IMG/VR virus record: IMGVR_UViG_3300045391_000819
Span: 32,001 to 96,000 of that record
DNA: 64,000 bases
DNA from: a virus
Strand: one strand, 5' to 3'
Shown: in pieces, positions 21,499-46,618 of the stretch
Position numbering within the stretch: the first letter of the stretch is position 1
How the letters are laid out: each line of letters begins with the position of its first letter
The notes under the pieces: model-generated
What the model saw: the letters and a program-made list of their open reading frames with translations, nothing else
What the model was told of the DNA's origin: nothing
Databases searched by the model: none
Made by a program: the position numbers and the translations under genes

Positions 21499-21636
21499 AT
21501 GAAAAAGTTCTTTTTAGACAGATGGATTGAAGAAGGCCAATACTGGAAATTCGCCATCGCAATATTTATAATGTTGATACTCATTGAAGTAGGAGGCTCT
21601 ATATTACAAAAATTATGGATATTATTCCATTTATAA
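21499..21636 (+). CDS. 45-aa membrane peptide (not in ORF track)
   Basis: MKKFFLDRWIEEGQYWKFAIAIFIMLILIEVGGSILQKLWILFHL*. Confidence 0.5.
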   Translation: MKKFFLDRWIEEGQYWKFAIAIFIMLILIEVGGSILQKLWILFHL

Positions 21637-22619
21637 GAAGTAAGAATGCTTGTGATTATCACAGACTTATTCTTCCGCTAGAGAACTTAGGTATACCAAC
21701 AAGATTGAAACCGGGAACTCTACCAGACGGATTTAAGGATTGTAAAGTGTTGATATTTAATAGATATTGTCCTTTTGACATAGGGCAAATTCTTAAGTTT
21801 AAATTCAAACACGGCTTTACAATCATCTGTGATCTTGATGACTATTGGAAACTATATCCCGGTCATGTGGCGGAGAAAGTGTGGGATAAGTATAACACTA
21901 CCCAAAAGATGATGGAGGGCATATTAAATTCTGATATGGTCTGGACTACGACCAAGCGACTGGCAGACCAAGTCCTACCATATAACAAGAATGTAGAAGT
22001 TATTCCTAACGCACTGCCCTTTGATGAAGGGCAATTTAATTCGTATAAAGAGGAGTCTGATGTGGTTAGAGTTCTGTATGCTGGTGGTACGTCCCACATG
22101 AGGGATTTATTGAGTATCAAGTATTTATTTGAAAAAATATCTCATCTTGATTTTCAAATGGTTTTATGTGGGTACGATGAGAATCGCCCTGAATTTTGGG
22201 ATAAAATGGTGAGGATAATAACAGGCAATGGAAAGATTAAGAATCTTGTTAAGAAAGGATTTCTGCCACTAGAGAGTTACATAGATCATTATAATCATTG
22301 TGATATAGGGATTGCTCCTCTTGAATTTAACTTCTTTAATGGTCATAAGAGTAATCTTAAACTACTTGAAGTAGGCTGTAAGTATTCTCCAATTGTAACA
22401 TCCGATGTTCCGCCATATAGTGATGAGAAAGAGCCAATGTTGATGGCAAAGTCGGTCGCAGAGTGGTACATACTTTTATACAGGCTTATAACTGATAAAG
22501 TATACAGACAGGAGCAAGGTCAGCGATTAGGAGAATATGTCAGGGAAAATTATAATTTGAATAAAGTAAATAATATTAGGAAACAAATATTTAATCATTT
22601 AGGATGCGCAGATTTGTAA
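21615..22619 (+). CDS. GT-B fold glycosyltransferase (GT4-like)
   Basis: DLDDY, WTTTKRLA, VIPNALP, DIGIAPL...KSNLKLLE, SDVPPY. Confidence 0.8.
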   Translation: MDIIPFIRSKNACDYHRLILPLENLGIPTRLKPGTLPDGFKDCKVLIFNRYCPFDIGQILKFKFKHGFTIICDLDDYWKLYPGHVAEKVWDKYNTTQKMMEGILNSDMVWTTTKRLADQVLPYNKNVEVIPNALPFDEGQFNSYKEESDVVRVLYAGGTSHMRDLLSIKYLFEKISHLDFQMVLCGYDENRPEFWDKMVRIITGNGKIKNLVKKGFLPLESYIDHYNHCDIGIAPLEFNFFNGHKSNLKLLEVGCKYSPIVTSDVPPYSDEKEPMLMAKSVAEWYILLYRLITDKVYRQEQGQRLGEYVRENYNLNKVNNIRKQIFNHLGCADL

Positions 22620-23457: not shown

Positions 23458-23663
23458 ATTTCTACTACTTTAGCCGCAGGTTCTTCTGAAGATTCCGTTA
23501 TAGAAGCTGCTTGTTTTGCAGCAGATTCCTGCTTCAATCTTAAACTGATCTCTTGATTTACAGCGTCTAGCATATTTGAATACTGCTGTATAATAGTCTG
23601 TAAATCCCAAGCAAATGCTTTACAGGCTTCAAGAGTCATTGTCTTTAAATTAACTTGATTCAT
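23439..23663 (-). CDS. small coiled-coil protein (74 aa)
   Basis: ORF; heptad-like; last gene of the minus block. Confidence 0.65.
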   Translation of the reverse strand: MNQVNLKTMTLEACKAFAWDLQTIIQQYSNMLDAVNQEISLRLKQESAAKQAASITESSEEPAAKVVEIKKGKK

Positions 23664-24109
23664 ATGTTATCTATTATTTGTTGAGGTAATACAAAAGCAT
23701 CTTGTTCATAATTGCATGAGTCCCAAAGACCAAACTGATCCGGCCTCAAGTACTTAACATCCTTCAATAAGTTCTTATTCTGTTTATATCCAAATATTTT
23801 AGGGTCTGATTTGGAGAATATAACTATTCCGCTTTTCAGATTATAATGATTGCAGAAATGAGGAAAGAAATTATCTACAGATATAAAGGTATCCATATCA
23901 CTAGCAAAGTCTTTAAGCTTTGAAAGCGGCATATCAAACGACGTCTTTTCAGCGAGCTTCTCCTCACCACTCCTACCTATCTGCCAAACCTCATGACCTT
24001 TATTAGCTAATAAGCTTATAACCTCCTGCCAGTACTGGACTGGATAGTTCTTTGGGTTTGGTTTCCCCGACATGGTTTTGTTGCTGAAAGGTGAAATTAT
24101 AATTTTCAT
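23660..24109 (-). CDS. GT9 (heptosyltransferase-like) C-terminal half
   Basis: IIISPFS...KNYPVQYWQEVI...ISVDNFFPH. Confidence 0.7.
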   Translation of the reverse strand: MKIIISPFSNKTMSGKPNPKNYPVQYWQEVISLLANKGHEVWQIGRSGEEKLAEKTSFDMPLSKLKDFASDMDTFISVDNFFPHFCNHYNLKSGIVIFSKSDPKIFGYKQNKNLLKDVKYLRPDQFGLWDSCNYEQDAFVLPQQIIDNI

Positions 24110-25136
24110 TATCTGTTATATAAAAAGCTCTAAAAGCTTCGGTTAACGATTTATCCCAGTTTCTATCTCCCATAAATTTATAGATATTGTAATTCTCTAT
24201 ATTTCCATAGATCATTTTAGCCTCTGCAATAGAGATCAATTTAAGACCTTTTTCGTCCCAAAAGACTTCTGGAAAGCAGGCAGCTATTAACATATCCTTA
24301 TACTTTTTCCTTAACTCAGGAAGTATATTCTTAAAAGCATAGTGATCTCCAATACCGTTATCAAGGATGAACATCTTTGTGGTATTGACTATATCCCATT
24401 GATTTAAAAGGTTTTGGAAGTGTTTCTCATCCCATTCCCAAAACGAAGGATTAGGATTAGCCCTAATTCCGCCTTTCTCTTCCCTGAAATGCCAGACCTT
24501 AGCATCCATATTGACCATCAGATTATATCCAGCCCTCTTAATTGAGTGCGTAAAGATACTTTCCTCCCTGTGGGCTGCTGGTGATAAGGATAGGTCGTAA
24601 GACATAATCCCTCGCTTGTATAGAAAGCAAGAGTACAGATGGTCAGCATCATAAGTCCCTGTCCCTTTAAACCATTGCATGTTAGGGGCAGACATAATAC
24701 TGGTCATTCTGTTCCTTAAACCTAGAGGAAGTTCAGCAGGATTGGACATTGTCACGGCAGGAGCCACAGCACCTATCTTAGAATCCTTTTTAAAGGTCTC
24801 TACGAGCAATCTAAGACAGTTTGGAGCTGCAACCTCGTCATCATCTATCCTAAAAATAAGGTCTGTATTAGCGTTCTCTTGCACGTACTGATGAGAAAAA
24901 TGCTGACCCTTTTTAAGACCGAATCTATAGTCCCAATCTATACCCTTCTCCAGAAGGAGGTCAAGGATATACCTATAATGAGATATACCCCTGACGTCTA
25001 CTGGATTATCTGAATCATCTACTATTATTACTTTCTTAGGTTTATACGTTTGTAAAGCAATGGATAGCAGAGTTTTATCTAAACACTCGTACCTATTCTT
25101 GGTGGGAATCCCCACCGTTATATCATATTGACTCAT
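24003..25136 (-). CDS. GT2 glycosyltransferase fused to a GT9-like N-terminal domain
   Basis: VGIPTKNR, IIVDDS, RIDDDE (DxD); C-terminal ILDNGIGDH...LRKKY. Confidence 0.8.
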   Translation of the reverse strand: MSQYDITVGIPTKNRYECLDKTLLSIALQTYKPKKVIIVDDSDNPVDVRGISHYRYILDLLLEKGIDWDYRFGLKKGQHFSHQYVQENANTDLIFRIDDDEVAAPNCLRLLVETFKKDSKIGAVAPAVTMSNPAELPLGLRNRMTSIMSAPNMQWFKGTGTYDADHLYSCFLYKRGIMSYDLSLSPAAHREESIFTHSIKRAGYNLMVNMDAKVWHFREEKGGIRANPNPSFWEWDEKHFQNLLNQWDIVNTTKMFILDNGIGDHYAFKNILPELRKKYKDMLIAACFPEVFWDEKGLKLISIAEAKMIYGNIENYNIYKFMGDRNWDKSLTEAFRAFYITDNENYNFTFQQQNHVGETKPKELSSPVLAGGYKLIS

Positions 25137-25827
25137 TCGGGTCTATTACGTTGTTATTGCCACTAGCATCAGCTATATTCTGTTGTTTTTCAGCTTCTTC
25201 AAACAAAGTATCAACAACACCTGATGATAAAGGTATTGTGGTAGAAGCATATGCTGTCATGAGGAAGTTAGCAAATCCAGAATATCCAGAATATCCACTT
25301 GCTCCACTATAACCTGAGTAACCACTTTTACCCATCATTTTAGCATAACTTGTCTTGTCTCCAGCACTAAATCCTCTATATTGGTCTTTCAACCCTACAG
25401 ATGTGGCATCTTTTTCAGTTGTTCCTGTAAATAAAATTGCCCATCCTGCTTTCTTTTTCTTAGCAATTAATTTCTTAATATCATTGTTATCATACACCTT
25501 GCTATCATTTTCTTCACCGTCTGTTATAATAGTAACAAAAACTTTCTTTTCCTTTTTAGGAACTAAATCAAAAGCATAACCGATAGCATCATATAAGGCT
25601 GTGGCTGCTCTAGGTTTATACGCTCCTGCTAATTCTTCTTTAAGTTCAGATACGTCATTTGTATTGACAAGTGTTCTAATGTCATTACTGCCTGAAAAAT
25701 CTACAACAATATTATGTTGTGCTTTTGTTTCACGCATTGTTATAAACAGCTGGACAAGCGAGCCTATAACTTCATCTTTCATGGAGTTCATACTCCCTGA
25801 AGCATCTAAAATAACTAAATTTGTCAT
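25123..25827 (-). CDS. von Willebrand factor A domain protein with an SGY repeat insert
   Basis: MIDAS DASGS, TALYDA, ITDGEEN; insert SGYSGYSGASGYSGYSGF. Confidence 0.85.
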   Translation of the reverse strand: MTNLVILDASGSMNSMKDEVIGSLVQLFITMRETKAQHNIVVDFSGSNDIRTLVNTNDVSELKEELAGAYKPRAATALYDAIGYAFDLVPKKEKKVFVTIITDGEENDSKVYDNNDIKKLIAKKKKAGWAILFTGTTEKDATSVGLKDQYRGFSAGDKTSYAKMMGKSGYSGYSGASGYSGYSGFANFLMTAYASTTIPLSSGVVDTLFEEAEKQQNIADASGNNNVIDPNESI

Positions 25828-25839
25828 TATTGTTTGGTT

Positions 25840-28017
25840 TTAATTTGATACTACTTCCATTGGCTGTACTAAGCCATTTAATACATATTTGTTTAAGTTT
25901 GCTAATACATACTGAGGATAGGTTTCATCTACTTCTACAAAATGATATTGTAAAGGACGACCATATAAATCCTTTCCTTCATTCACAACCTTCTCAATCC
26001 TACTTAAATCTTTCATTTCTTCTGTATTGTATTCCTGATGGGCTGTGGCTTCAATCTTATTTTTGATACCATTAATATCAGCAAGATAACTAAAATGCCA
26101 TCCACCATTCTTAAGTAGGGAATCTCCTGTTGTAGGCCAGTATCTAATTCCACATGGAGTTTTCTCCTTTACATTCTTGTATGTGGCAATTTTAGCCTCA
26201 TTCCATTTATCAGCAGCCTCACAATTCAACTTGTAATAATAAAGAGTTTGTTGAAACCCCATTATACCTTTTGAATAGTCAAATTCATAAACCTTTGAGG
26301 CTCTTGGGATTTCATCAGCATCGCTGATAATAATCATATCATTATCCTTGCAATCTGTAAGACCTCTCATAATCTGATCTCTCTGGTGACGTTCTATACT
26401 CCAACTATCCCTTGCAGGGAATTCATCTTCACTAACTACTATATGAGTTACCTTGTTTAAATACTTTTCATATCTAGCAAGGTTTTCCTGAAAGTAAAGA
26501 GGTTTAGGTTTGTTGCCATGAGTTATAGCAGCTTCAACAATAACGAATCTGTCAACAACATCATACATTTCAGCAAATCTTATGTCAAGGACATCCAGTT
26601 CATTAAAGAACGGGAAACAATCGTATATATTAAGTTTATTCATAACATTTGGTATTCCGCCTGAATTAACTAAAGGTATTGCCTCGTTAGGTTTGATAGC
26701 CCAAATATTTGTATCTTCCTGTTGTATTGTAGGAAGATTAAAGGCTTCATCTACAGCTTGGGTAACTCCTGCCCACATTCCGTCTGTGTAGTTATAGTCA
26801 TGTCCAGAAAGAATTCCGTTTTCAAAAACTACATCCTTCCATAAACCTATATCTTCCTTTACTTCTTCGTAGGTATGTCCAGCATCAATGAAGATTAAAT
26901 CCGCTTTAATACCTTGCTTTTTAAACCAAGCAGAAGCGTTTTTAGAACTCATCCTAACAGGAATTACTTTACCTGATTGAATATGATCTGAAAGATTATC
27001 AGAGAACTCTAGGAAGGCATGATCTCCATCATTCCAAGCTGCTGATTGGTGATTAGTATTACGTTCTACAGCAGAACCAGCCCAATGATCTACACAAAAA
27101 AGTCTTCCGTTATCTGGAAGATTATCTGCTAAAGCTCTTGAGCTTCTACCATGCCAGCTACCTATTTCTATAACAGTTTTAGCTTTAGCTGCTTGTTCAG
27201 CTAACCAAAGCAGTTCAGCCTCACTCATAAAACCGTCACAAGCTCTAGCCTTTGCTATTTTTGGATTATTAATTATTTCATCCCTAGTAAGCTCACCTAA
27301 TTTTGGCTCTCCTCTATATCTCTCTTCTAATATCTTATTATTCTTGGCAAGAAGTGCTTCACCGCCGGGCCAATTCGCAAATGTCTTATTACCAGCATGA
27401 TATATAGGAAATACACCAGTCCTACGATTAGTATCATAGAACATACGTGATTCATCTGGTACTTGAACTAATTCAAAACCAGCATCTGCCACACGAGCAC
27501 AGAAATCTGTATCTTCTCCATATCCCGGAGAGAATATTTCATCAAGAAGTCCTACCTTTTCAAGTGCTTCCCTAGAAATCATAGATAAAAAGAATAAAAG
27601 AAAATCCCTATCAGCGTGAGGACAATGCTCCTTCATTGGGCCAGTCATACCGACTTTACGGTCTTTCTGTTCAAAAGGAGCTACAAGGATATTAAGCCAG
27701 TCATTGTATTGCTGGTCAAGGAGAATGTTATCGTTATTAAAGGTAATAATATAATCTCCTCTTGAGATTTTAATACCTTCATTAGTGGCTCTGGTGAAGC
27801 CTATAGCTTCATCAAACCACAATAAAACGATACCATGAAACTTAGATTGTAAGTCTTTAATGTAATCTTTAGTACCATCTGTGCAGCCGTTTGCAACAAT
27901 TATTAACTCAGTACTAAAATCATTGAGCGTAGTGTATTTAAGAATAGAATCTACGGCAGGACGTAAACAATCTTCAAAGTGATTGTACGTAGGAATGACA
28001 ATCGAATATTTAGGCAT
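25840..28017 (-). CDS. three-domain protein: GT2 + SAM methyltransferase + GT17 (GnT-III-like)
   Basis: SIVIPTYN, FNNDN, GYGEDTDF; EIGSWHGRS, FIDAGH, GHDY; IYDCFPFFNELD, SDADEIP, GGWHFSY. Confidence 0.85.
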   Translation of the reverse strand: MPKYSIVIPTYNHFEDCLRPAVDSILKYTTLNDFSTELIIVANGCTDGTKDYIKDLQSKFHGIVLLWFDEAIGFTRATNEGIKISRGDYIITFNNDNILLDQQYNDWLNILVAPFEQKDRKVGMTGPMKEHCPHADRDFLLFFLSMISREALEKVGLLDEIFSPGYGEDTDFCARVADAGFELVQVPDESRMFYDTNRRTGVFPIYHAGNKTFANWPGGEALLAKNNKILEERYRGEPKLGELTRDEIINNPKIAKARACDGFMSEAELLWLAEQAAKAKTVIEIGSWHGRSSRALADNLPDNGRLFCVDHWAGSAVERNTNHQSAAWNDGDHAFLEFSDNLSDHIQSGKVIPVRMSSKNASAWFKKQGIKADLIFIDAGHTYEEVKEDIGLWKDVVFENGILSGHDYNYTDGMWAGVTQAVDEAFNLPTIQQEDTNIWAIKPNEAIPLVNSGGIPNVMNKLNIYDCFPFFNELDVLDIRFAEMYDVVDRFVIVEAAITHGNKPKPLYFQENLARYEKYLNKVTHIVVSEDEFPARDSWSIERHQRDQIMRGLTDCKDNDMIIISDADEIPRASKVYEFDYSKGIMGFQQTLYYYKLNCEAADKWNEAKIATYKNVKEKTPCGIRYWPTTGDSLLKNGGWHFSYLADINGIKNKIEATAHQEYNTEEMKDLSRIEKVVNEGKDLYGRPLQYHFVEVDETYPQYVLANLNKYVLNGLVQPMEVVSN

Positions 28018-28031: not shown

Positions 28032-28063
28032 CAAATGTACGAAATAACTATTTAATTTCCAAA
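28032..28063 (-). promoter_or_regulatory. Bacteroidetes-type promoter for the GT cluster
   Basis: Minus strand TTTG (28063-28060), N20, TACATTTG (28039-28032). Confidence 0.75.
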
Positions 28064-28087: not shown

Positions 28088-30634
28088 TTATGATACTGTT
28101 ATTGTCTTGGTTACACCATTAATTCTCACCTTTAAACCTGTGTTAGTGTTGTCAGCTCTCCAGATGTCACCATCAACAGGTGATGAGTTTGTAAATACAG
28201 CAAGATTGATAAGAGTGTTAAAATTGGTCTTACCACCAAGGAAGTTTACTTCTGTAGCACCAGCCTGATATATACCCCATCTATTAGTTACAGTATATCC
28301 ACCAGCAAGACCTACTGCAATATCATCTATATATAAACCATAGTGATTAGTAATAGTTTGTGTAGTAGTTGCACCAGCAGTTGTAATAGGATATAAGGCT
28401 CTTAAACATGCAAATTTGTCCATAGTTCCTGAACCTGCTGTATTCAACCAGTACTGACCTCCTGCAAAGAAACTATTACCTGATGTATAGTTGAAAGCAG
28501 CATCATCATAAACAGTCACAACACCACTAAGACCAGCAAGTTGCACATATGAAGCTGTACCATCATAAGCCCAAGTTCCACTACCAAGGAATCCAAATTC
28601 ACCATACATACCACCTAAAGGTTGAGTACCACTATAAGTTGTACCACTTGTTACAAGCATTTGACCTTCAGCACCTATATAACCAACTGATGGAGAACCA
28701 GATACAGCATGTCTCTTAGTTGATAAAGTACCAAAGAAATTAGCCGTTCTATCATCGAATACTGTAAGAGTAGATACAATAGGAGTATCTGTACCTATTG
28801 TCATTATACCGTCGCTCAAAGATAATAAGAAATCACCAGAAATATATCTATTATTTAGTAATGGCGCAGGAGTACCTGAAGGCCCACCAAGTTCTACAAT
28901 TGTAGCATCACCACTATTTAAGGAAAGCCCGTTTTGTGCTGTAACTACAGAATCTGGAACCCATGTCTCTATAACATTTCCACTACCATCTACACCAAGA
29001 AAATAGTTAGGACTACCTGAAAATGTTCCTACTCCATAGTTTCCAAAAACAATACCATTATTTGCACTAAGATTTAATGTACCTGTTATCGAATCTCCTA
29101 TTAAATTAGCAAAACCACTTGTATTATTATCAAATGTTGAAAGTCCAAATTGAGTAGTTACACCTAAATTAGCAATAAGATTTAATTGTGCGTTGGCATC
29201 ACTTCCAGTATGAGTAGCTGTTAAAGTAGCATTAAATGAAGATGGTAAAATAGCAAGACCATTGTTTGCACCATCTATAATAATATTATGACCATTTAGG
29301 TCAAAATTTCTAGTTTGAGTTGCTTGGTCATCTTCTCCAGATACACCAAATCTTGTAGGATCAGGTGTAATGGAAGATGTAGTTACTTCTATAACGTTAC
29401 CGTTAGTATCAAAGGCTGCTAAGAATGTAGGTGTACCAGTAAAAATACCATCACCATAATGAGGTAATCTTGCTGCACCTCCACCATCCAAACCAAATAT
29501 TTCTGATATAACTGTATTGCTAACTCCTTGTATTGCATAATCAGAGGTTCTTGAACCATGAACAGGATTTACCCAACTAGAAATAATTTTATTAGATAAA
29601 GTGGTAAAATTTCCAGCATCTTTTAAATCAAATTCAATATATGAACCAAATCCAGCCGTAGGTGTTCCACCAGTACTTCTAGTCATTAATAATCCAAACT
29701 CAGCAGTAGAAACAGAAGGATTAAAATTTATAGACCACACTGGTATACCAGATACAGCCGTAAAAGCTCCAGCAGTTCCAAATCCTGTAGCATCTCCTTT
29801 AACTCCTTGTCCACCATCTGTAGTTCCTACTACTCCATATCCTGTAGTTAAAGCATCACCTCTAATAGCTACCCCTGTACGCACTGTACTTTCTATACCA
29901 TTACTATTTAAAAAACCAGCAGTTGAAAAGTTTTGAACCTTTAAAATTGGTTTAAAATTATTTGTTCCTTGTGTATAAAGTGTAAAAGTATTACTATCTA
30001 TATACCTATCATCTAAAAGTTCTGAAGGATCACCAATAGGCCCGCCTAATTGAACGTTCGATGGAGCATTCTTAGAAAGACCATTATCTGCTGTTATAAC
30101 AAAATCATCTATTGGTAGTGGTTGCCATGCTCCTTCTCCTGAACCATTATCTATAAGTGTCCATACATATCCATTTTCAGCACCAGATAATGTAGAATTT
30201 ATAAATAACTGATTAGTATCAATTTTTATTTGATCGTTAGCCCCATCTATCTTAAGGAAATCCCTAGTACCATTACCAAAAGCAATATAATTGCTAGGCA
30301 TATTGTAATACCTATTTTGAGCAGCAGTATCATCTTCTCCGCTAACAGCGAATCTTTGAGTCAGTTCATCTATCTCAAACGATCTTGTAAATGTGGTTCC
30401 ATTTTCATCGGTGTACTGGATAGACACAACATTCCCATCTATTGTAAAATCACTTAACACAGTAAGTGTCTCACAGTTATGAACCTGCTCACATGTAAGG
30501 TCTGTTGGAATACTATAAGCCGTGCATAAAGCATCAATCAACTGCTGTTTCCATGAACAGTTGATCCCTGTAAGAATATTAGAAAAATATTGCTTACATG
30601 TTAAGCTGGTTAATTCTACGTTGTCTTGTGCCAT
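28088..30634 (-). CDS. tail fibre-like protein (848 aa)
   Basis: G/T/N/S-rich beta composition; internal duplicated modules; Cys-containing N-terminus. Confidence 0.65.
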   Translation of the reverse strand: MAQDNVELTSLTCKQYFSNILTGINCSWKQQLIDALCTAYSIPTDLTCEQVHNCETLTVLSDFTIDGNVVSIQYTDENGTTFTRSFEIDELTQRFAVSGEDDTAAQNRYYNMPSNYIAFGNGTRDFLKIDGANDQIKIDTNQLFINSTLSGAENGYVWTLIDNGSGEGAWQPLPIDDFVITADNGLSKNAPSNVQLGGPIGDPSELLDDRYIDSNTFTLYTQGTNNFKPILKVQNFSTAGFLNSNGIESTVRTGVAIRGDALTTGYGVVGTTDGGQGVKGDATGFGTAGAFTAVSGIPVWSINFNPSVSTAEFGLLMTRSTGGTPTAGFGSYIEFDLKDAGNFTTLSNKIISSWVNPVHGSRTSDYAIQGVSNTVISEIFGLDGGGAARLPHYGDGIFTGTPTFLAAFDTNGNVIEVTTSSITPDPTRFGVSGEDDQATQTRNFDLNGHNIIIDGANNGLAILPSSFNATLTATHTGSDANAQLNLIANLGVTTQFGLSTFDNNTSGFANLIGDSITGTLNLSANNGIVFGNYGVGTFSGSPNYFLGVDGSGNVIETWVPDSVVTAQNGLSLNSGDATIVELGGPSGTPAPLLNNRYISGDFLLSLSDGIMTIGTDTPIVSTLTVFDDRTANFFGTLSTKRHAVSGSPSVGYIGAEGQMLVTSGTTYSGTQPLGGMYGEFGFLGSGTWAYDGTASYVQLAGLSGVVTVYDDAAFNYTSGNSFFAGGQYWLNTAGSGTMDKFACLRALYPITTAGATTTQTITNHYGLYIDDIAVGLAGGYTVTNRWGIYQAGATEVNFLGGKTNFNTLINLAVFTNSSPVDGDIWRADNTNTGLKVRINGVTKTITVS

Positions 30635-30644
30635 TTTTTATTTT

Positions 30645-32303
30645 TTATAAAGCGTGCCATGCCCCGTTATAGTAACACCAAGGGCCAATAGAAGTAAATG
30701 TTCCATCAGTATTTGATACAAATACAATATCTCCTTCTAATGGTGTTATTGCACTTGCAGATGTTGCTGTTCTTGGGATAAGTCTAAAGATTCCAGCAAT
30801 ATTTACAAGGTCTGAAGTTCCTTGTTGGTCAATTGCGTATGCATTAGTTGTGAATGCATTTTTTAAAGCATTAATCTGAATACCTGTATGTGTACCAAGT
30901 GTTGAACTAGCTCCAAATGAAACGTCATCATTAACCATTATATGTGTGAAACTGTCCATTGCAACCGTAACACTTCCACTTAATTTAAGTCTTGAGCTTA
31001 TATTTCTCATTGATCCGGTAGTAGAACCATTGAAGTTAGCTTCAAAGTCTGTTTCAAACCTACCAACACTATGTCCCCTAGCACCCACAGCTATAAGTCC
31101 ACCCGGATAACCAGTTGTAGCTTCAAATCCTGCTCTCCACATATGCATAGCTGTGCTATTTTCATTACCGTCTGTAGTAACGTTTCCGTTTAGATAACTT
31201 CTTGATACATGCAGAGCTTGGAATGGTCTTAATACAAATCCAGATTGCATTTTATACTCTTCATAATCACCTATAGCCCACTGAACAGTTTTTTGTATAT
31301 CAACAAATTTAATTTCAGACCAGTTAAGAACATTACTGGTGTTAAAAGCACCAGTCATATTCTGTGTGTTCTGTCTGGTTATACCTGAAGTTGAAGTATC
31401 TATAAAACGTAATTGTCTTCCATCTAATAGAACTTCAGAATCTCCAACAAGAGTTGCCTGAGTATTTCCTGTATCAGTTTGAAGTCTTCCAAGTCCTAAA
31501 CGTCCTGTAGTATCATCAAATCTTACCCCGCTAAATCCTTCAATATTAGGAACCTCAATAACATTACCACCCGCATCAACATTCAAGGCGTAAGTAGGAG
31601 TTCCTGTAATTGCTCCAGTGCCGTAATCTGAGGCGATTAGAGGGCCATCTAAAGTAATACCGTTAGCAGCTGCTAGTTTAAGTGTTTCAGTTTCACCAAA
31701 ACCAGAAACTTCTACAAGACCACCACCCGGAACTTGAGAGAATAAAGTGAAGCGTGCATTTGATCCTATAGTATTAAAATCCAACTCTGCAAAAGCAAGG
31801 TTTGGCCCACTTATAACACGAGTAGCACCAATGGCTGCCTGAGCTAGTGAAAATCCAAGCCTAAACTCTAAAGGATCACCAAGATCAAATATATTAAAAT
31901 TATGATTATTTAAATCAAATGTTCTATCTTCAAGAGCTTGAACATCTTCTGCTGGAAAACCAAATCTTTCCTGAGTAACAGGTGCGCTTGCAGCAGAATC
32001 CATAAGTTGGAAATTACCACCATCATAGATAACTGATACTATTTTACCAACAGGTAAATCTCCAGCTACAAGAGGAGTACTTACATTTTTCATTATAGGT
32101 CTTGGCCCATATCCATCTACTTCTAAAGTACAAGGGCCGGTATTAGTAGTTCCTGCTTGGAATACTACTTGTAAACCGTTTGTATAGCCCGGAGATATTG
32201 GATATGTGAATCTCACAGAATAAGCGTCTACTACTCCTATATCCGTAAGGTAAGTAGCTCTTTGTTGTAAATTGTCAATTGTTAAATTACCTGATAATTT
32301 CAT
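30645..32303 (-). CDS. tail fibre-like protein (552 aa)
   Basis: N-terminal YTNGL...TNTGP...VYDGxxFQL fibre domain shared with 36858..39845; modules shared with 28088..30634. Confidence 0.65.
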   Translation of the reverse strand: MKLSGNLTIDNLQQRATYLTDIGVVDAYSVRFTYPISPGYTNGLQVVFQAGTTNTGPCTLEVDGYGPRPIMKNVSTPLVAGDLPVGKIVSVIYDGGNFQLMDSAASAPVTQERFGFPAEDVQALEDRTFDLNNHNFNIFDLGDPLEFRLGFSLAQAAIGATRVISGPNLAFAELDFNTIGSNARFTLFSQVPGGGLVEVSGFGETETLKLAAANGITLDGPLIASDYGTGAITGTPTYALNVDAGGNVIEVPNIEGFSGVRFDDTTGRLGLGRLQTDTGNTQATLVGDSEVLLDGRQLRFIDTSTSGITRQNTQNMTGAFNTSNVLNWSEIKFVDIQKTVQWAIGDYEEYKMQSGFVLRPFQALHVSRSYLNGNVTTDGNENSTAMHMWRAGFEATTGYPGGLIAVGARGHSVGRFETDFEANFNGSTTGSMRNISSRLKLSGSVTVAMDSFTHIMVNDDVSFGASSTLGTHTGIQINALKNAFTTNAYAIDQQGTSDLVNIAGIFRLIPRTATSASAITPLEGDIVFVSNTDGTFTSIGPWCYYNGAWHAL

Positions 32304-32312
32304 ATTATATTT

Positions 32313-41522: not shown

Positions 41523-41969
41523 TTATGTACCTTTAAGATGATGAACCTCACCATGATAACAAAATTTAAAATCTGTTAATGCCCCAATTCTACCCTCACA
41601 TTCAATCCATTCACAAGGAGTATCAAACAAGTCAAGAGATTTTAATATTAGAGATGCTGAAATTTTAGCACATCCTATATGAGAAGTTCCGCTAGCTCCC
41701 TCTACAGAAGAACAATACCCTGCTACACAAAGAGGCTCTGAACAATTCCACATCTCTTTTAACAATTCAATTCTTGGAACTACATCATGTTCAATATTAA
41801 TAAAGGTTTGTTTTTCATTCCACCTTTCTTTAAAATATTGACCATATCCATAAAACTTATCTACTATAGGACAGAAGGTTGCATCAGGAACAGCCAGCAT
41901 TACTGGTGCTCTTAAATTAGTAAAAGGTACAAATATTCTTATGCTACTTTGATTGCTTTTAACCAACAT
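41523..41969 (-). CDS. minimal GT-A-fold glycosyltransferase-like protein
   Basis: Y..Y...W...TFINIEHDVVP...C...C...IGCAKIS; EHD sits in the DxD-equivalent position. Confidence 0.45.
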   Translation of the reverse strand: MLVKSNQSSIRIFVPFTNLRAPVMLAVPDATFCPIVDKFYGYGQYFKERWNEKQTFINIEHDVVPRIELLKEMWNCSEPLCVAGYCSSVEGASGTSHIGCAKISASLILKSLDLFDTPCEWIECEGRIGALTDFKFCYHGEVHHLKGT

Positions 41970-44900
41970 GCTGCTCTATATGTTAAAGTTCCACTTGTTA
42001 CTTTATTTCCTCTGACTACTAAGTTTCCTGAATCAGATACTACTATTTGTCCAGTTAAATAAGCATAGGATTCTGTATTAGCTGTAGTCCAACAAGTTGT
42101 GCTACCTGTATTTACTGCTGTTATTCTCACAGTTGCTATAAGCCCTGTTCCGCTTGATTGGGCTGACTGGAAAGCATCAATTGATGTTGTAGTTCCAGTA
42201 TAGTTAATTGCAAATTTTACACCAGCTGTACTACTAGATTGACCCAACAGCATAGCTTCAAATTGCCATGTTCCAGCAGTTAAAGCAATAGATAAACCAC
42301 TTAAATCTGTTAAACTGGTTGATGTTGTTGTGTTAGCAGTTGCCAATGCAACAAATGGTGAAATTCCACTATAACCCGAATAACCACTAATTCCAGAATA
42401 ACCAGAATAACCAGACCATCCAGAAGAACCTGTTGTTAATAACCATGTATCGGTTGCTGTTTTAACTAAAGCTACAACAGAATACTGACCATTCATTACT
42501 AAACTAGGAGCTTCAATAGTTACACCACCAGCAGCTACAATTGTAACAGTACCTGCACCAGCTTGTTCTACAACTATCTGTGAACCAACAGGAAATGCTA
42601 CTGAAGCATTTGTAGGAACTGTCAAGTTGTGAGCAGAGGCACTACTCATCTTTATTCCAGTTCCAGCATCACCAAGTACTAAAGTATAGTCCGTATCGGT
42701 TTGAGTAGTAAACGTAAGAGTATTTTGTCCACTAAAACCTGAGTATCCAGATTTACCGCTAAATCCTGAATAACCAGAAATACCGCTAAATCCTGAATAA
42801 CCTGAGATTCCACTATATCCTGAATAACCACTAATTCCTGAATATCCACTATACCCACTTCTTCCACTAAATCCTGAGTATCCTGAAATACCTGAAAAAC
42901 CTGAGAAACCTGAAGCTCCGGGATTAGCCCCCGAAAATCCAGAATAACCTGAAAGGCCACTGAATCCTGAATAACCTGATTTACCTGAGAACCCAGAATA
43001 ACCTGAAATTCCAGAATATCCACTATAACCACTATAACCCGAATACCCACTATAACCTGAAATTCCACTACTTAGGAGCCAAGTATCTGTAGCTTGCTTG
43101 ACCAAACATACAGTAGAATACTGAGCACCCATTGTTAGCCCTTGGGCATTAATAGTAACTCCTACACCTGCTGCAATTGTAACACCGCCTGTTCCTGCTT
43201 GCTCTATTACTATTTCTGTACCTACGATAAATGCTACAGAAGAATTAGGAGGAACAGTTAATGTATGCGCAGATGCAGAATCCATCTTGATTCCTGTAAA
43301 TGCATCTCCTAGAACTAAAGTATAATCTGTGTCAGTTTGAGTAGTAAATGTTAAAGTACTAAGTCCACTAAATCCTGAATATCCTGATTTACCTGAGAAA
43401 CCAGAGTAACCTGAAATACCTGAGAAACCAGAGTAACCAGAAATACCACTAAAACCAGAGTAACCAGAAATACCAGAACCTGAGTATCCAGAATAACCAG
43501 ATAATCCTGAGAAACCTGAGTAACCTGAAAGACCACTATAACCTGAATATCCACTTAACCCACTATAACCTGAGTATCCAGAATAACCAGAATAACCTGT
43601 ATGAGTAAATGTAATAACTATAGGAGTGTTATTAGCAAATACGCCATTATTATTAACTATAGGTGTAACTGATAACTTTCTATATCCTGTACCATCTACA
43701 ACCGATCCTGTTAATGTGAATGATGCAAAGTTCGAAGAATTACTTTGTTGATATACTTTAAGATAACCTCTATTTGAACTAAAAGATGTATCATCAAAAG
43801 TATCAAGCCAAGTAGAAACATCAGTTCCTGCTACGTTATTGTTATCTACATATATCGTAGTGATAGAAGCAAATGTAGCGTTATTGTATCTCAACAATCC
43901 ACTTCCCGGATCAGCATCAGCAGTTGTAGTGCTGAATGTATACGCCTGAGAATCACCACCAAAGCCTCCTGAGAATCCGCTAAATCCAGAGTACCCAGAT
44001 ATACCAGAGTATCCCGAATATCCACTAATTCCAGAATAACCAGAATAACCAGATATACCGCTATAACCACTATAACCAGAAAGTCCTGAGAATCCAGAAT
44101 AACCAGATATACCAGAATAACCACTGTAACCTGACCCACCACTAAAACCAGAGTAACCGCTAATTCCAGAGTATCCACTATAACCTGAAAGTCCACTATA
44201 TCCTGAGTATCCTGACTTACCTGAGAATCCAGAAAATCCAGAAGCACCATCGCTTCCAATTACACCATCTTGTCCACTATAACCAGAATACCCACTTTTA
44301 CCAGAGAAACCACTATATCCTGAAAGACCACTGTAACCAGAGTATCCAGATAAACCTGAGTAACCACTATAACCTGAAATACCACTACTCAATAACCAAC
44401 TGTCGGTTGCTTGTTTTACCAAACAAACTACAGAATATTGAGCGCCCATTGTATAACCTTGAGCATCAATTGTTACTCCTAAACCGGGAGTTATTGTAAC
44501 TGCTCCAGTACCTCCCTGCTCTATAACTATTTCTGTACCTACAACAAAAGGTACTGATGAATTTGGTGGAACAGTTAAGGTATGTGGAGAAGATGAGGAC
44601 ATCTTAACACCTGTAAAGGCATCTCCTAAAACTAAGGTGTAGTCTGTATCAGTTTGAGTATTGAAGAGAAGAGTACTTAATCCACTAAATCCAGAATATC
44701 CTGAATAACCTGACTTTCCACTAAAACCAGAATAACCAGATATTCCTGAATATCCTGAGTAACCTGAAAGACCACTGAATCCAGAGTAACCAGAGATTCC
44801 TGAATAACCAGAGTATCCACTCAATCCACTGAATCCAGAATATCCAGATATACCAGAATAACCAGATATACCAGAGTAACCTGAATATCCTGAATGACCT

Positions 44901-46618
44901 GAAGTTCCTGAGAACCCACTATATCCACTTATTCCACTAAAACCTGAATATCCACTAACTCCTGAGTAACCACTATATCCACTTAATCCTGAATAACCAC
45001 TATAACCACTTCGTCCTGAATAACCACTATATCCAGATTCACCTGAATATCCTGAATATCCTGAATAACCACTAATTCCAGAATAACCGCTGTATCCTGA
45101 TGCTCCCGGATTTGCACCAGAATAACCAGAATAACCAGAAGCACCATCGCTTCCAATTACACCATTTGTTCCACTAAATCCTGAATAACCACTAAGACCT
45201 GAGAAACCTGACGCTCCCGGATTTGCACCAGAGTAACCTGAGTAACCAGAGAAACCTGAATAACCAGAAGCAGCAGAACCGTTAATAACTACGAACCCAT
45301 CAAATCTTTCATCTTCATCATCATCCTGTGGGATTTTGATAGTAAGAATATTGGATGTGGTTTGTTCTATTTCTTCTACCCAAACCTGCGTAGGAAGAAT
45401 AGGATTAGTTGCATCCCAAACTTCTACAACAAGAGCATCAGAACCTAAATTATGTGGGAAAGAAATTTCATATTGTCCAAGACCATTATCAATCCAGTCA
45501 GCAATTATAAATGAATCAACAAAAGCAATGGCAGCATGTCCTGAGAATCCTGAATAACCTGAGAAACCAGACACACCGGGGTTTGTACCAGAGTATCCAC
45601 TGTAACCTGAATAACCAGAAGCACCACTTGCACCAGAGCCATTAATAACTATACGACCAGCGAACCTTCCATCAGGTATTTCTGTTGCATATATCTTAAC
45701 ATCGTTGATTGATATTTCTTCAATGCTGTGTACGAATCTTTGGAAAGGTGTACCAGTCAAATCCCATAATTCTACAATAAGATTGAAACTACTTAAGTTA
45801 TGGTTGAATGTTATAGAGTATAATCCATCAACAGCTGTACCCCAGTCAGTATTGTTATTAAAGATTGCGAAGTATGCAGGAGTTGCAAATCCTGAATATC
45901 CAGAGATACCAGAACCACTGAATCCTGAATATCCAGAATATCCAGAGTGACCTGAGAAACCACTATAACCTGATGTAGCAGTTCCACTGAATCCTGAATA
46001 ACCTGATTCACCAGCTCCTGAATAACCAGAGAATCCACTATCACCAGAACCTGAATAACCTGAGAAACCACTAAGTCCTGAGAATCCTGAGAGTCCTGAG
46101 AATCCTGAATAACCTGAAGTTGAGTCTCCGCTAAATCCACTGTAACCAGAACGACCAGAGAAACCAGAACGACCAGCTCCACTATATCCTGAGAATCCAG
46201 AAACACCTGATCCTGAATAACCAGAGAAACCAGATTGTCCAGAGAAACCAGATGTTGAATTACCTGAGAAACCTGAATAACCAGAAATTCCACTGAAACC
46301 AGAACGACCTGACCATCCAGAAAATCCACTTAACCCTAATCCACTAAAACCAGAATAACCTGAGCGTCCAGAGAAACCTGACATTCCTCCATCAGCTACA
46401 GAGATTGTATAAACAGGATTAGACCCAATTGTTTGGGTTGCGGCTTCTCCAATTATAATACCAGCACCAGCATTAATAGTGATGGTCTTGTTTAAAGCAA
46501 TAGGGTCATTTTCAACAAAACAGCCTGAGCGAATTTTATTCAATTCAACCCAAAGCTTTTTTATTTCATTTTCACAACCTTTAAAGCTGTAACGTATATT
46601 TAAATCACCAGAACCCAT
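41939..46618 (-). CDS. virion fibre with SG(Y/F) tracts and interspersed globular domains (1559 aa)
   Basis: About seven SGY-dominated tracts; two HNL-type domains; three TQTDTDYTLVLGD domains; one GDSQAY domain. Confidence 0.8.
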   Translation of the reverse strand: MGSGDLNIRYSFKGCENEIKKLWVELNKIRSGCFVENDPIALNKTITINAGAGIIIGEAATQTIGSNPVYTISVADGGMSGFSGRSGYSGFSGLGLSGFSGWSGRSGFSGISGYSGFSGNSTSGFSGQSGFSGYSGSGVSGFSGYSGAGRSGFSGRSGYSGFSGDSTSGYSGFSGLSGFSGLSGFSGYSGSGDSGFSGYSGAGESGYSGFSGTATSGYSGFSGHSGYSGYSGFSGSGISGYSGFATPAYFAIFNNNTDWGTAVDGLYSITFNHNLSSFNLIVELWDLTGTPFQRFVHSIEEISINDVKIYATEIPDGRFAGRIVINGSGASGASGYSGYSGYSGTNPGVSGFSGYSGFSGHAAIAFVDSFIIADWIDNGLGQYEISFPHNLGSDALVVEVWDATNPILPTQVWVEEIEQTTSNILTIKIPQDDDEDERFDGFVVINGSAASGYSGFSGYSGYSGANPGASGFSGLSGYSGFSGTNGVIGSDGASGYSGYSGANPGASGYSGYSGISGYSGYSGYSGESGYSGYSGRSGYSGYSGLSGYSGYSGVSGYSGFSGISGYSGFSGTSGHSGYSGYSGISGYSGISGYSGFSGLSGYSGYSGISGYSGFSGLSGYSGYSGISGYSGFSGKSGYSGYSGFSGLSTLLFNTQTDTDYTLVLGDAFTGVKMSSSSPHTLTVPPNSSVPFVVGTEIVIEQGGTGAVTITPGLGVTIDAQGYTMGAQYSVVCLVKQATDSWLLSSGISGYSGYSGLSGYSGYSGLSGYSGFSGKSGYSGYSGQDGVIGSDGASGFSGFSGKSGYSGYSGLSGYSGYSGISGYSGFSGGSGYSGYSGISGYSGFSGLSGYSGYSGISGYSGYSGISGYSGYSGISGYSGFSGFSGGFGGDSQAYTFSTTTADADPGSGLLRYNNATFASITTIYVDNNNVAGTDVSTWLDTFDDTSFSSNRGYLKVYQQSNSSNFASFTLTGSVVDGTGYRKLSVTPIVNNNGVFANNTPIVITFTHTGYSGYSGYSGYSGLSGYSGYSGLSGYSGFSGLSGYSGYSGSGISGYSGFSGISGYSGFSGISGYSGFSGKSGYSGFSGLSTLTFTTQTDTDYTLVLGDAFTGIKMDSASAHTLTVPPNSSVAFIVGTEIVIEQAGTGGVTIAAGVGVTINAQGLTMGAQYSTVCLVKQATDTWLLSSGISGYSGYSGYSGYSGYSGISGYSGFSGKSGYSGFSGLSGYSGFSGANPGASGFSGFSGISGYSGFSGRSGYSGYSGISGYSGYSGISGYSGFSGISGYSGFSGKSGYSGFSGQNTLTFTTQTDTDYTLVLGDAGTGIKMSSASAHNLTVPTNASVAFPVGSQIVVEQAGAGTVTIVAAGGVTIEAPSLVMNGQYSVVALVKTATDTWLLTTGSSGWSGYSGYSGISGYSGYSGISPFVALATANTTTSTSLTDLSGLSIALTAGTWQFEAMLLGQSSSTAGVKFAINYTGTTTSIDAFQSAQSSGTGLIATVRITAVNTGSTTCWTTANTESYAYLTGQIVVSDSGNLVVRGNKVTSGTLTYRAACWLKAIKVA
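42360..46383 (-). repeat. SG(Y/F) tripeptide coding repeats, interrupted by globular domains
   Basis: 9-nt periodic imperfect repeats such as TCTGGTTAT, AGTGGATAT and TCAGGTTAC on the minus strand. Confidence 0.95.

Follow-up and report, generated by a model that had tools for sequence, protein, structure and literature searches.

Dedicated glycosylation of surface proteins is known from viruses and bacteria. Collagen is glycosylated via hydroxylysine by Mimivirus L230 and by animal LH3 and COLGALT1, and the autotransporter heptosyltransferases TibC and Aah, which are related to family GT9, O-glycosylate serines of a repetitive adhesin. In Chlorovirus PBCV-1, a single polypeptide of two glycosyltransferase (GT) domains and a methyltransferase, A064R, reportedly builds and methyl-caps a virion-protein glycan without host GTs. 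The collagen-like protein BclA3 is encoded beside SgtA, a GT-A enzyme extended by a further domain at its C-terminus; SgtA places beta-O-GlcNAc on threonine at the Y position of the collagen triplet and also accepts serine (PMC7157674). According to Freeman 2023, as cited in PMC12619734, mycobacteriophage GTs glycosylate the phage's own virion proteins.

The window analysed here, a stretch of 64,000 nucleotides, comes from the complete 131.7-kb genome of a crAss-like soil phage. It contains six to seven GT domains, one methyltransferase, a vWA protein and two fibre genes, all of which an earlier note on this DNA had located correctly. The two fibre proteins are the proposed glycan acceptors. 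The larger (1559 aa, 41939..46618, minus strand) contains 240 collagen-like G-[Y/F/I/L]-S triplets, counted as Gly-X-Y triplets in runs of at least 4, with Tyr (100) or Phe (47) prevalent at X and Ser (220) at Y. The triplets are arranged in 18 runs, two of them of 48 triplets each, broken up by three copies of a globular domain of ~95 aa and other non-repeat domains. The smaller (995 aa, 36858..39845, minus strand) has 203 G-[F/Y/L/R]-S triplets (X is Phe in 88 and Tyr in 24, Y is Ser in 164), one copy of the ~95-aa domain and a domain of ~125 aa at its C-terminus. Both match Pfam Collagen (1.2e-78 and 3e-64, respectively) and PHROG tail-fibre families; the non-collagen domains of the 1559-aa protein match phrog_8780 (minor tail protein) and the C-terminal domain of the 995-aa protein matches phrog_35197 and phrog_10330 (virion structural protein). 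There is no Pro in the triplet runs of either fibre, and Lys and Pro are almost absent from both proteins. The regular serine repeats that had been described as SG[Y/F] are thus present in both fibres, but their register is that of collagen, G-[YF]-S, with Phe/Tyr at X and Ser at Y, which had gone unrecognised. On account of this Gly-X-Y structure, the nearest characterised precedent is found not in the serine-rich-repeat adhesins invoked previously but in the glycosylated collagen-like spore proteins BclA and BclA3, the latter with SgtA (PMC7157674).

In the present phage the GT block is separated from the fibres by 8.8 kb of other tail genes. These four genes (28088..36856, minus strand) encode a LamG-like protein of 253 aa (Pfam Laminin_G_3, 8e-19), a Pel9A-like beta-helix protein of 1260 aa (Pfam Pel9A-like_beta_helix, 4.5e-36), and proteins of 552 aa, matching the tail protein phrog_4900, and 848 aa. 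A fifth additional tail-module gene, for a beta-helix protein of 523 aa (39855-41426), sits between both fibre genes; Pfam Beta_helix was matched at 2.4e-9 among the tail-module beta-helix proteins. The motif TTTG-N20-TAcaTTTG, read from the sequence immediately upstream of the 725-aa gene of the GT block (28032..28063, minus strand), resembles a promoter of the Bacteroidota -33/-7 type, and with this putative promoter the GT block may be transcribed independently.

The 377-aa protein (24003..25136, minus strand) consists of a GT-A domain of family GT2 (Pfam, 2.4e-13) and a C-terminal domain of ~95 aa with the motif GxGDH, which behaves as the N-lobe of a GT9-like GT-B enzyme. The motifs DDD and GxGDH do not vary among 22 homologues of a family of 507 clusters. 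By structure, the solved enzymes nearest to the GT-A domain act on wall teichoic acid (RmlT, TarP and TarS). The adjacent 149-aa protein (23660..24109, minus strand) resembles a GT9 C-lobe, the nucleotide-sugar-binding Rossmann half. Its assignment to GT9 is weak, with a Pfam GT9 match of 20.5 bits (E 3e-4) that lies below the 22-bit gathering score, a match to TIGR02193 heptosyltransferase I at E 1.7e-3, and, for the modelled C-terminal half, top 7 Foldseek matches to WaaC, WaaF and a GT9 protein at probability 0.91-0.99 and E 4e-3 to 2e-2. Orthologues of the 377-aa protein are 321-345 aa long and typically overlap the next gene by 4 nt; the present ORF extends 37 aa beyond the usual end, giving an overlap of 107 nt. 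In ~50 loci the 149-type gene always lies directly 3′ of the 377-type gene and in another frame, and in one locus the two are naturally fused into a protein of 470 aa (L007:3125-4537). The 'split GT9' of the earlier note is therefore GT9-like over two genes as proposed, but by this adjacency, frame usage and fusion it is a conserved two-gene design and no broken gene. Proteins as long as 2846 aa also carry the 377-type unit, fused behind other GT or methyltransferase domains.

The third enzyme is a 725-aa protein (25840..28017, minus strand) with the Pfam architecture GT2 (~1-240, 6e-19), Methyltransf_24 (~265-430, 5e-19) and GT17 (~460-700, 3e-32). The majority of its 599 homologues share this architecture, at 45-72% identity, and the catalytic-type motifs N94/D96, E168-D169, G286/W288/G290 and D566/D568/E569 are invariant in 24 of them. 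By hydropathy it has no membrane segment (maximum KD19 1.23), and the same is true of the enzymes as a whole.

Co-occurrence of fibres and GTs was examined in both directions. For the fibre-first sample, 120 IMG/VR loci were picked solely by a degenerate (G[YF]S)2-GxS-(G[YF]S)2 DNA pattern, and short flanks were searched for three units, namely the GT2 N-domain of the 725-aa enzyme, the 377-aa GT2 and the 149-aa GT9-like protein. At least one unit was found in 42/120 loci and in 0/112 control loci with other collagen-like repeats (P-Q, P-T, A-T, S/T-S and others; Fisher p = 1.4e-14). The 377-type has the tightest fibre linkage (38/120), followed by the 149-type (34/120) and the GT2 N-domain (22/120); the methyltransferase and GT17 domains are frequent yet optional across fibre-linked loci. 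Where fibre and GT are both held (41 loci), the median gap is 26 bp, 26/41 are at most 100 bp apart, all 41/41 are on the same strand, and the fibre is upstream in 31/41 and downstream in the remainder. A module GT occurs in 7/9 near-complete genomes, the other two having one a G-Y-T fibre and one an aromatic-poor G-x-S fibre. In the GT-first direction, a fibre was found in all informative IMG/VR and genome loci (L002, L003, L005, L007, L008, L288, L289), and an aromatic-Ser collagen ORF in 16/20 loci on metagenome contigs with 10 kb of upstream flank, as against 0/36 unrelated loci; in the other 4/20 no fibre was seen within 10 kb. On a 4.5-Mb chromosome, G-[YF]-S ORFs occur nowhere but at 10-16 kb from the GT pair, and a distance of 9-16 kb is seen in the present phage and in the genome G045.

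Carriers of the module are phages of 38-149 kb with hosts ranging from Bacteroidota-type to a betaproteobacterium. The 52 unique 377-type sequences fall into 24 clusters when grouped at 70% identity and into 10 at 50%. In five carriers, three of them with a completeness of 97% or more, no homologue of the TerL or MCP of the present phage could be detected, with a positive control run. In the cultured betaproteobacterial (Methylophilaceae) siphovirus P19250A (38.7 kb), fibre, methyltransferase, 377-type and 149-type genes stand in a row. The sampled contigs may be related to one another, and the number of loci does not equal a number of independent events. Taken together, the genomic linkage of GT units and G-[YF]-S fibres is strong, specific, two-way and spread over diverse phages, bearing out the co-occurrence for which the earlier note had proposed a search. 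This linkage is evidence of a shared function and says nothing on chemistry.

Not all of the GT set named in that note shares in the linkage, which holds for the GT2 N-domain, the 377-aa GT2 and its 149-aa partner but not for the 334-aa GT, the 148-aa mini GT-A or the vWA protein; these three are lineage-specific. The 334-aa GT-B (GT4-type) enzyme (21615..22619, plus strand) matches phrog_7162 'glycosyltransferase' (2e-66) and nothing in Pfam, and its Atlas neighbours are viral GT group-1 (GT4-type) clusters (scores 0.98-0.99). Its gene adjoins that of a NinI-like phosphoesterase at the end of the replication arm, homologues at 35% identity occur in Phapecoctavirus 4-GT clusters and Campylobacter phages, and a single weak match was found among G-[YF]-S fibre loci; it stands outside the conserved fibre-linked module. 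The 148-aa protein (41523..41969, minus strand) is encoded between both fibre genes, with its first 31 nt overlapping the end of the 1559-aa gene. It has no match in Pfam, PHROG or NCBIfam. Modelled in the Atlas with a pTM of 0.84, it aligns in structure (TM 0.73-0.82) with N-terminal portions of viral GT-A proteins of the types GT2, GT8 and Anp1; homologues are absent from G-[YF]-S loci. Homologues of the 234-aa vWA-domain protein (25123..25827, minus strand; Pfam VWA_2 at 2e-5, below gathering; phrog_7371 at 1.8e-28) are likewise absent from those loci. It carries the MIDAS motif DxSxS (DASGS) and then, at residues 166-186, 7 G-[YF/x]-S triplets, so that it does share the repeat motif as had been noticed; an adaptor, a co-substrate or a fibre-associated chain are its candidate roles.

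As positive co-occurrence in both search directions argues for treating GTs and fibres as one system, we consider dedicated O-glycosylation of fibre serines by the phage GT module, in the manner of SgtA/BclA3, to be probable. The two fibres would form proline-free, collagen-like trimeric stalks of Gly-aromatic-Ser triplets and be substrates of a cytoplasmic glycosylation module. Its core would be the soluble 377-aa GT-A enzyme and its obligatory 149-aa partner, the latter combining with the C-terminal domain of the former into a two-chain GT9-like GT-B enzyme, and its usual third unit would be the second GT2, at the N-terminus of the 725-aa protein. One core enzyme would begin an O-linked glycan on Y-position serines and others would extend it, whilst elaboration and methyl-capping would fall, in the present phage, to the two further domains of the 725-aa protein (methyltransferase and GT17) and perhaps to the mini GT-A of 148 aa. 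Sugar donors would be host nucleotide sugars; neither PF01370 (NAD-epimerase/dehydratase) nor PF00483 (sugar nucleotidyltransferase) was found in the whole 131.7-kb genome, in line with the earlier remark that no nucleotide-sugar synthases are visible. The glycan might stabilise or hydrate the proline-free triple helix, protect against proteases or tune adhesion. We infer glycosylation itself, the fibre as acceptor, serine as site, the order of the enzymes and the benefit, and likewise the sugars and a role of the glycan as shield, adhesin or mimic. What speaks against this reading is the 8.8 kb of tail genes between fibres and GT block in the present phage together with the possible separate promoter of that block, the 4/20 GT-first loci without a fibre within 10 kb, and the weak assignment to GT9. 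The interpretation in the earlier note is partly supported. If true, this phage sugar-coats its own collagen-like fibres.

GT genes in phage tail-fibre regions are usually read in the literature as modifying the host surface, and GT2, GT17 and GT9 enzymes usually have glycans or lipids as acceptors, which on sequence alone would allow a non-protein acceptor here. The GTs might alter LPS, capsule or a cell-wall glycan during infection, blocking superinfection or keeping progeny from sticking to debris, with fibre and GT genes travelling together through co-evolution of the receptor-binding apparatus and receptor-modifying enzymes. The wall-teichoic-acid enzymes nearest in structure to the GT-A domain, of which TarP is prophage-encoded, and weak GtrB-like PHROG matches of the GT2 domain are consistent with such a role, as is a pelagimyophage study in which GTs of the tail-fibre hypervariable region were read as O-chain modifiers (PMC7029224). 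We nevertheless regard it as unlikely. The linkage follows the composition of the stalk (aromatic-Ser triplets, 0/112 other collagen-like loci) and not the receptor-binding tip, the enzymes are without membrane segments, no flippase, polymerase or Und-P-type partner adjoins the GTs in the inspected loci, and the module is found in phages of a Bacteroidota-type host and of a betaproteobacterium, whose surface glycans differ.

Were capsid, tail tube or some other virion protein the acceptor, or a free or virion-bound polysaccharide the product, with the fibre as neighbour or scaffold, there would be no explanation of why these GT families occur only beside collagen-like genes of the aromatic-Ser type (median gap 26 bp), and why minimal modules, as in P19250A, are fibre, methyltransferase and GT pair alone. 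We hold this to be very unlikely, even though the mycobacteriophage glycans described by Freeman 2023 (cited in PMC12619734) are on the C-termini of capsid and tail-tube subunits, and a second glycan cluster with a polysaccharide pyruvyl transferase suggests polysaccharide-like chemistry. This cluster lies outside the window, where the earlier note, accurate for the GTs it listed, could not have seen it; it also comprises two GT2 genes and a PLOD-type GT (PF25342, 5e-47) fused to a methyltransferase, and the PLOD-type domain is without linkage to G-[YF]-S loci. It is more doubtful still that fibre and GT genes are enzymatically unrelated and merely inherited or transferred as one mobile cassette. 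Relatedness among the sampled contigs, whose loci need not be independent events, would favour this, but the linkage holds over 10 GT clusters at 50% identity and in genomes without shared TerL or MCP, and the association is kept despite variable gene order (fibre upstream in 31/41) and gaps of 9-16 kb, which points to selection for co-presence and not mere synteny. Glycosylation of phage DNA against restriction, chiefly by the 334-aa GT on the replication arm, seems to us the least likely reading. DNA hypermodification by virus GTs has precedent (Pyle 2024, as cited in PMC12619734), and this enzyme is encoded at the end of the nucleotide-metabolism arm and has homologues in Phapecoctavirus GT clusters beside primase/helicase. 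However, no dCMP or dUMP hydroxymethylase is present in the phage, its thymidylate synthase is an ordinary ThyX, and the fibre-linked GT units are encoded on the arm of late structural genes, away from those for replication.

Returning to dedicated fibre glycosylation, the proposed system resembles several others in part. Like TibC it includes a GT9-like GT-B fold, and TibC is itself a weak structural match to the C-terminal half (rank 18, probability 0.93), but here two chains make up the enzyme, and the LPS heptosyltransferases WaaC and WaaF match that half best. As with Mimivirus L230, a virus would add sugar to its own collagen-like proteins, but through chemistry other than that of hydroxylysine, the fibres having almost no Lys or Pro. 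Two GT domains and a putative sugar methyltransferase are fused in one viral polypeptide, as is said of PBCV-1 A064R; domain families and their order are not the same, the order here being GT2-Methyltransf_24-GT17, and the acceptor of A064R is reportedly a capsid protein and its host eukaryotic. By description (Freeman et al. 2023, Cell Host Microbe, as cited in PMC12619734), mycobacteriophages would share with the present phage the location of GT genes among those for structural proteins, the targeting of the phage's own virion and the use of host sugar donors, but their glycans are carried by C-terminal extensions of capsid and tail-tube subunits instead of by collagen-like fibres, and the GT families and host phylum are other ones. 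The nearest likeness, again by description (PMC7157674), is to SgtA/BclA3 of C. difficile, and also to BclA glycosylation on Bacillus spores: a collagen-like Gly-X-Y surface fibre with a hydroxy amino acid at Y, and an adjoining soluble GT-A enzyme with an extra C-terminal domain that starts, or here would start, an O-glycan. The present system differs in being phage-encoded, in its G-aromatic-Ser rather than G-Pro-Thr triplet, and in bringing together two or more GT folds and a GT9-like unit in two parts, to which methyltransferase and GT17 domains are often added.

Both of the repeat proteins that the earlier note described as SG[YF]-rich fibres are present in the window, as are the other elements it listed, but they belong to the collagen-like Gly-X-Y class and not to the serine-rich repeats. 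The first (995 aa, 36858..39845) and the second (1559 aa, 41939..46618), both on the minus strand, carry glycine at every third residue over 203 and 240 triplets, respectively, in runs of up to 48, and match Pfam Collagen (PF01391) with E values of 3e-64 and 1e-78. They also match PHROG tail-fibre families, and their non-repeat domains fall into minor-tail and virion-structural PHROGs. The X position is 55-61% Phe or Tyr, followed by Ile, Leu and Arg, and the Y position is 81-92% Ser; a count of triplet composition found no proline in the repeats. Bacterial collagens carry ~19-31% Pro at X and ~32-48% Thr at Y (PMC8968730), norms far outside of which both fibres fall, and neither has the stabilising residues typical of collagen (Pro/Hyp, charged or polar X-Y pairs). 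The vWA protein (234 aa, 25123..25827, minus strand) does carry the same triplet motif, as had been proposed, with seven triplets of the G-[YF]-S type alongside a MIDAS motif. Elsewhere in IMG/VR, a collagen-like ORF of 168 triplets with X mostly Trp, Ile or Phe and Y occupied by Ser (L179, 3300037502_004154) is an extreme aromatic variant of this fibre class; none of the module GTs described below was found on its 12-kb piece.

The window covers bases 32001-96000 of a complete viral genome of 131,721 bp that has direct terminal repeats; the GC content is ~36%. Replication and nucleotide genes (DNA polymerase, helicases, RNR, UvsX, ThyX) occupy the plus strand up to ~23.4 kb of the window, virion and tail genes occupy the minus strand from 64000 down to ~23.4 kb, and a hairpin followed by a T-run near 23.43-23.46 kb marks the point where the two arms meet. 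The genes for the major capsid protein, portal and TerL lie on the same minus-strand arm beyond the window. Interleaved with the fibres are two right-handed beta-helix proteins (32313-36095 and 39855-41426; Pel9A-like pectate-lyase fold, 4.5e-36, and Beta_helix, 2.4e-9) and a LamG/ConA-like protein (36095-36856), which are probably tail spikes that degrade or bind polysaccharide. Directly upstream of the fibre genes is a 3143-aa ORF (46622-56053) without a single Pfam or PHROG match, adjoined by ORFs of 877 and 927 aa without a PHROG match; possibly, these three are giant crAss-like virion proteins. A Cpn10 (GroES-like) co-chaperonin (20904-21389; PF00166, 2e-11) is encoded just upstream of GT334, a 334-aa GT4-type enzyme (21615..22619, plus strand). 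A 298-aa protein (12137-13033) has a MazZ-like dATP/dGTP diphosphohydrolase N-terminal domain (PF18909, 7.5e-22) fused to an NT5C-type nucleotidase (weak match). The hint of a Z-genome (2-aminoadenine) given by this gene was dropped, as the genome has no PurZ-type adenylosuccinate synthetase (PF00709).

The largest of the enzymes (725 aa, 25840..28017, minus strand) combines an N-terminal GT2 domain (PF00535, 69 bits against a gathering cutoff of 23.3), a Methyltransf_24 domain (PF13578, a class I SAM methyltransferase family; 69.6 bits, cutoff 26.3) and a GT17 domain (PF04724, 112.4 bits, cutoff 26). In its GT2 domain, N94/D96 and E168-D169 are invariant across 24 homologues, as are G286, W288, G290 and D378 of the SAM-type motif in the methyltransferase and D566, D568 and E569 in the GT17 domain. 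The 377-aa GT2 protein (377-type; 24003..25136, minus strand) scores 50.8 bits against PF00535 and its D98-D99-D100 is invariant across 22 homologues. Its 149-aa partner (149-type; 23660..24109, minus strand) scores 20.5 bits against GT9 (PF01075), under the gathering cutoff of 22, and 17.6 bits against TIGR02193, whose cutoff is 185. GT334 falls into a PHROG glycosyltransferase family with GT4-type neighbours. The 148-aa ORF (41523..41969, minus strand) has no sequence-family match; its Atlas model, which is of good confidence, aligns structurally with the N-terminal portion of GT-A enzymes from viruses. PDB sequence searches returned only generic GT2 matches for the 725-aa enzyme and no informative match for the 334-, 377- and 148-aa proteins. 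No membrane segment was found in any of the enzymes.

The 377-type and 149-type genes had been read as a split GT9. They are indeed adjacent ORFs with a marginal GT9 match, and in ~50 loci they lie in different frames, usually with a 4-nt overlap. Because of this identical two-ORF arrangement, the reading as a broken or frameshifted GT9 was rejected, and the split is therefore a conserved design. In the window the 377-aa ORF runs ~37 aa past the point where ~40 orthologues (321-345 aa) end, giving an overlap of 107 nt (24003-24109) with the 149-aa gene instead of the usual 4 nt; the extra tail is without conservation and looks like the product of a lost or shifted stop codon. At another locus, L007, the two units are naturally fused into one protein of 470 aa, and several representatives of ~500-520 aa may be further fusions. 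Moreover, the 377-type unit very often forms the C-terminal end of long proteins with several GT or methyltransferase domains.

An AlphaFold model of the L007 fusion (mean pLDDT 88) matches GT-A enzymes over its N-terminal half (E 5e-10; RmlT, TarP, TarS, GalT1/CgT and GalNAc-Ts). For the C-terminal half, modelled separately, the seven top Foldseek matches are WaaC, WaaF and a Veillonella GT9 (probability 0.91-0.99, TM 0.42-0.47), with weak E values of 4e-3 to 2e-2, and TibC ranks 18th. The C-lobe of this half is modelled at a pLDDT of ~90, its first 41 residues are disordered and its N-lobe is poorly modelled. Given the weak E values and the poor N-lobe, we label this unit GT9-like and not GT9.

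The earlier note had asked whether SG[YF] fibres and this GT set occur together across phage genomes, and the association held when searched from either side. From the fibre side, IMG/VR was scanned with a degenerate DNA pattern for (G[YF]S)2-GxS-(G[YF]S)2, which gave at least 120 loci. The 120 listed came from many samples, were short pieces for the most part and together amount to 929 kb. In tblastn searches with the window proteins, 38 of these 120 carried the 377-type unit, 34 the 149-type unit and 22 the GT2 domain from the N-terminus of the 725-aa enzyme; in all, 42 contained at least one of these three module GTs. As a control, a second scan collected any (Gly-X-Y)14 and the loci were sorted by composition. 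None of the 112 loci with other collagens (P-Q, P-T, A-T, N-T, S/T-S or charged) contained any of the three units, whereas two of the four [YF]-S loci in the same control sample did. The contrast between the fibre-first and control sets is strong (Fisher p = 1.4e-14), with the caveat that it counts loci and not independent evolutionary events.

The two kinds of gene are also close neighbours. Fibre and GT share a strand in all 41 loci holding both, at a median distance of 26 bp and within 100 bp in 26 of them; in this window they are 8.8-11.7 kb apart. Searches of whole records matched the 725-aa family in 16 of 39 mostly fragmentary records, and a GT lay 0-6 kb from a fibre in 12/12 records with a GT2-domain match. 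Where records were at least 90% complete, a module GT was present in 7/9; one of the two exceptions carries a G-Y-T fibre, let in by the degenerate Ser codon, and the other an aromatic-poor G-x-S fibre.

From the GT side, a query of IMG/VR with the single 725-aa sequence returned no related loci and an alignment query was needed. A G-[YF]-S ORF adjoins the GT in 5/5 loci of the 725-aa family with upstream flank, and none was found at the 12 loci matching the GT17 domain only. In a collection of species genomes the full-length 377-type GT is rare and, for the most part, found on short MAG contigs; both of the loci with adequate flank show the order fibre, GT2, 377-type, 149-type. The one large chromosome (4.5 Mb) has its sole G-[YF]-S ORFs at a distance of 10-16 kb from the GT pair. 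Among metagenome contigs with a full 10-kb upstream flank, 16 of 20 loci contained an aromatic-Ser collagen ORF, against a base rate of 0/36 at unrelated loci (again counts of loci). L292, a locus that at first resembled a counter-example, is none, its fibres lying just beyond the retrieved flank.

The 377-type sequences collected form 24 clusters at 70% identity and 10 at 50%, and the family as a whole comprises 507 clusters at 50% identity (E <=1e-30, library of 1.84 billion representatives). Carriers span 38 to 149 kb. In five of them, three of which are at least 97% complete, no homologue of the TerL or major capsid protein of this phage was detected with a query that recovers itself. The only deposited phage with a 377-type GT is the cultured Methylophilaceae phage P19250A (KX815270.1). 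Its gene product P19250A_0023 (1201 aa) contains 281 Gly-X-Y triplets, with Tyr, Ile or Phe at X and Ser at Y, and matches Pfam Collagen at 5.6e-124; judged by this sequence, its deposited name, 'tail length tape-measure protein', is very probably wrong. Directly after gene 0023 come, one after another, the gene for a SAM methyltransferase from a different family, the 377-type gene and the 149-type gene. A methyltransferase has joined the module at least twice. Taken together, the 10 clusters at 50% identity, the carriers without a shared TerL or capsid protein and P19250A point to a module common to different phage lineages and host phyla.

Other glycan genes of this phage lie outside the conserved module. 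No homologues of GT334, the phosphoesterase, the 148-aa ORF, the vWA protein or any other tail protein of the window were found in the linked loci, and GT334, the 148-aa ORF and the vWA protein were therefore dropped as core parts. Members of the GT334 family occur in Campylobacter phages and, in Phapecoctavirus, within clusters of four GTs, and there was no hint of hydroxymethyl-pyrimidine DNA among the GT334 neighbour genes. A second glycan cluster lies ~28.5-34 kb past the window end (genome positions 124558-129931, minus strand). It encodes a GT2/GT7C protein (283 aa), a polysaccharide pyruvyl transferase (242 aa), an ORF of unknown function (204 aa), a GT2 (254 aa) and a 455-aa protein in which a PLOD-type collagen GT domain (PF25342, E 5e-47) is fused to Methyltransf_24. 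These genes showed no linkage to G-[YF]-S loci, and neither the fusion nor the cluster was retained as part of the same module. The absence of nucleotide-sugar synthases was borne out genome-wide for the two commonest families. At two further IMG/VR loci (L164 and L167, on records G033 and G016), proteins that match the 725-aa enzyme through Methyltransf_24 only are encoded 2-3 kb away from collagen-like ORFs with G-Pro-Thr and G-Tyr-Thr repeats; linked modifying enzymes may therefore exist for other fibre chemistries too.

These data, which comprise genomic context together with fold and family assignments, suggest a scheme in which the fibres would be made late in infection and soluble GT units in the cytoplasm would use host nucleotide sugars to build O-glycans on the Y-position serines. 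Of the two hydroxyl residues, Ser is the likelier acceptor, since it hardly varies, whereas Tyr is freely exchanged for Phe. The initiating unit could be of either fold, with SgtA as the precedent for a GT-A enzyme and TibC for a GT9-like one. The minimal module of P19250A, with two GT folds and a methyltransferase, would be sufficient for a short methylated glycan. This phage has an additional GT2 and GT17, and perhaps the mini GT-A encoded by the 148-aa ORF, and its glycan is therefore possibly longer. Dense glycosylation could provide the hydration and stability that Pro or Thr give elsewhere. In its full form, the proposal is that G-aromatic-Ser fibres are a widespread, obligately glycosylated phage 'glyco-collagen', with a glycan on nearly every Y-position Ser that stands in for hydroxyproline and is required for the folding or stability of a proline-free, aromatic-rich triple helix, and with Gly-Ar-Ser as a sequon read by a two-chain GT9-like enzyme and a GT-A partner; we consider this possible but rather unlikely. 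With P19250A, a cultured carrier of the minimal version (fibre, methyltransferase and GT pair) exists, and whether the fibres are glycosylated is therefore directly testable.

If they are, this would be a second case of phage self-glycosylation besides that of the mycobacteriophages, and a mechanistically different one. Its distribution would be much wider as well, with 507 clusters from soil, freshwater and sediment viromes for the 377-type GT by itself. The annotation of GT genes in phage tail regions, now usually taken as modifiers of host O-antigen, would change. Moreover, a proline-free, aromatic-rich collagen would be a new class of substrate, with a bearing on the ways in which triple helices can be stabilised, and the compact pair of enzyme and sequon could serve the glyco-engineering of collagen-like biomaterials.

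Lastly, we compared the proposed system with known ones. A 2022 review treats the collagens of phages as short segments and those of prokaryotes as unglycosylated for the most part, and among the papers open to our search none was found on a phage collagen-like fibre with dedicated GTs. The analogy with serine-rich-repeat adhesins of the Fap1 type, drawn in the earlier note, did not stand. Those systems combine a serine-rich-repeat substrate, SecA2/Y2 export and an initiating GtfA/GtfB (GT4) pair, whereas here the substrate is Gly-X-Y collagen-like and no pair of the GtfA/B type is present; the sole resemblance is a generic GT-A structural likeness to GalT1/CgT (5hea). Collagen-like spore fibres, in contrast, are O-glycosylated by an adjacent GT in both the SgtA/BclA3 system of C. 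difficile and BclA (PMC7157674). The present loci, in their gene arrangement, resemble SgtA/BclA3 in having a GT-A gene that lies beside a collagen-like gene with Ser at Y and points in the same direction. Virion glycosylation encoded by the virus itself, as in mycobacteriophages, chloroviruses and mimivirus, is the same general idea as that proposed here.
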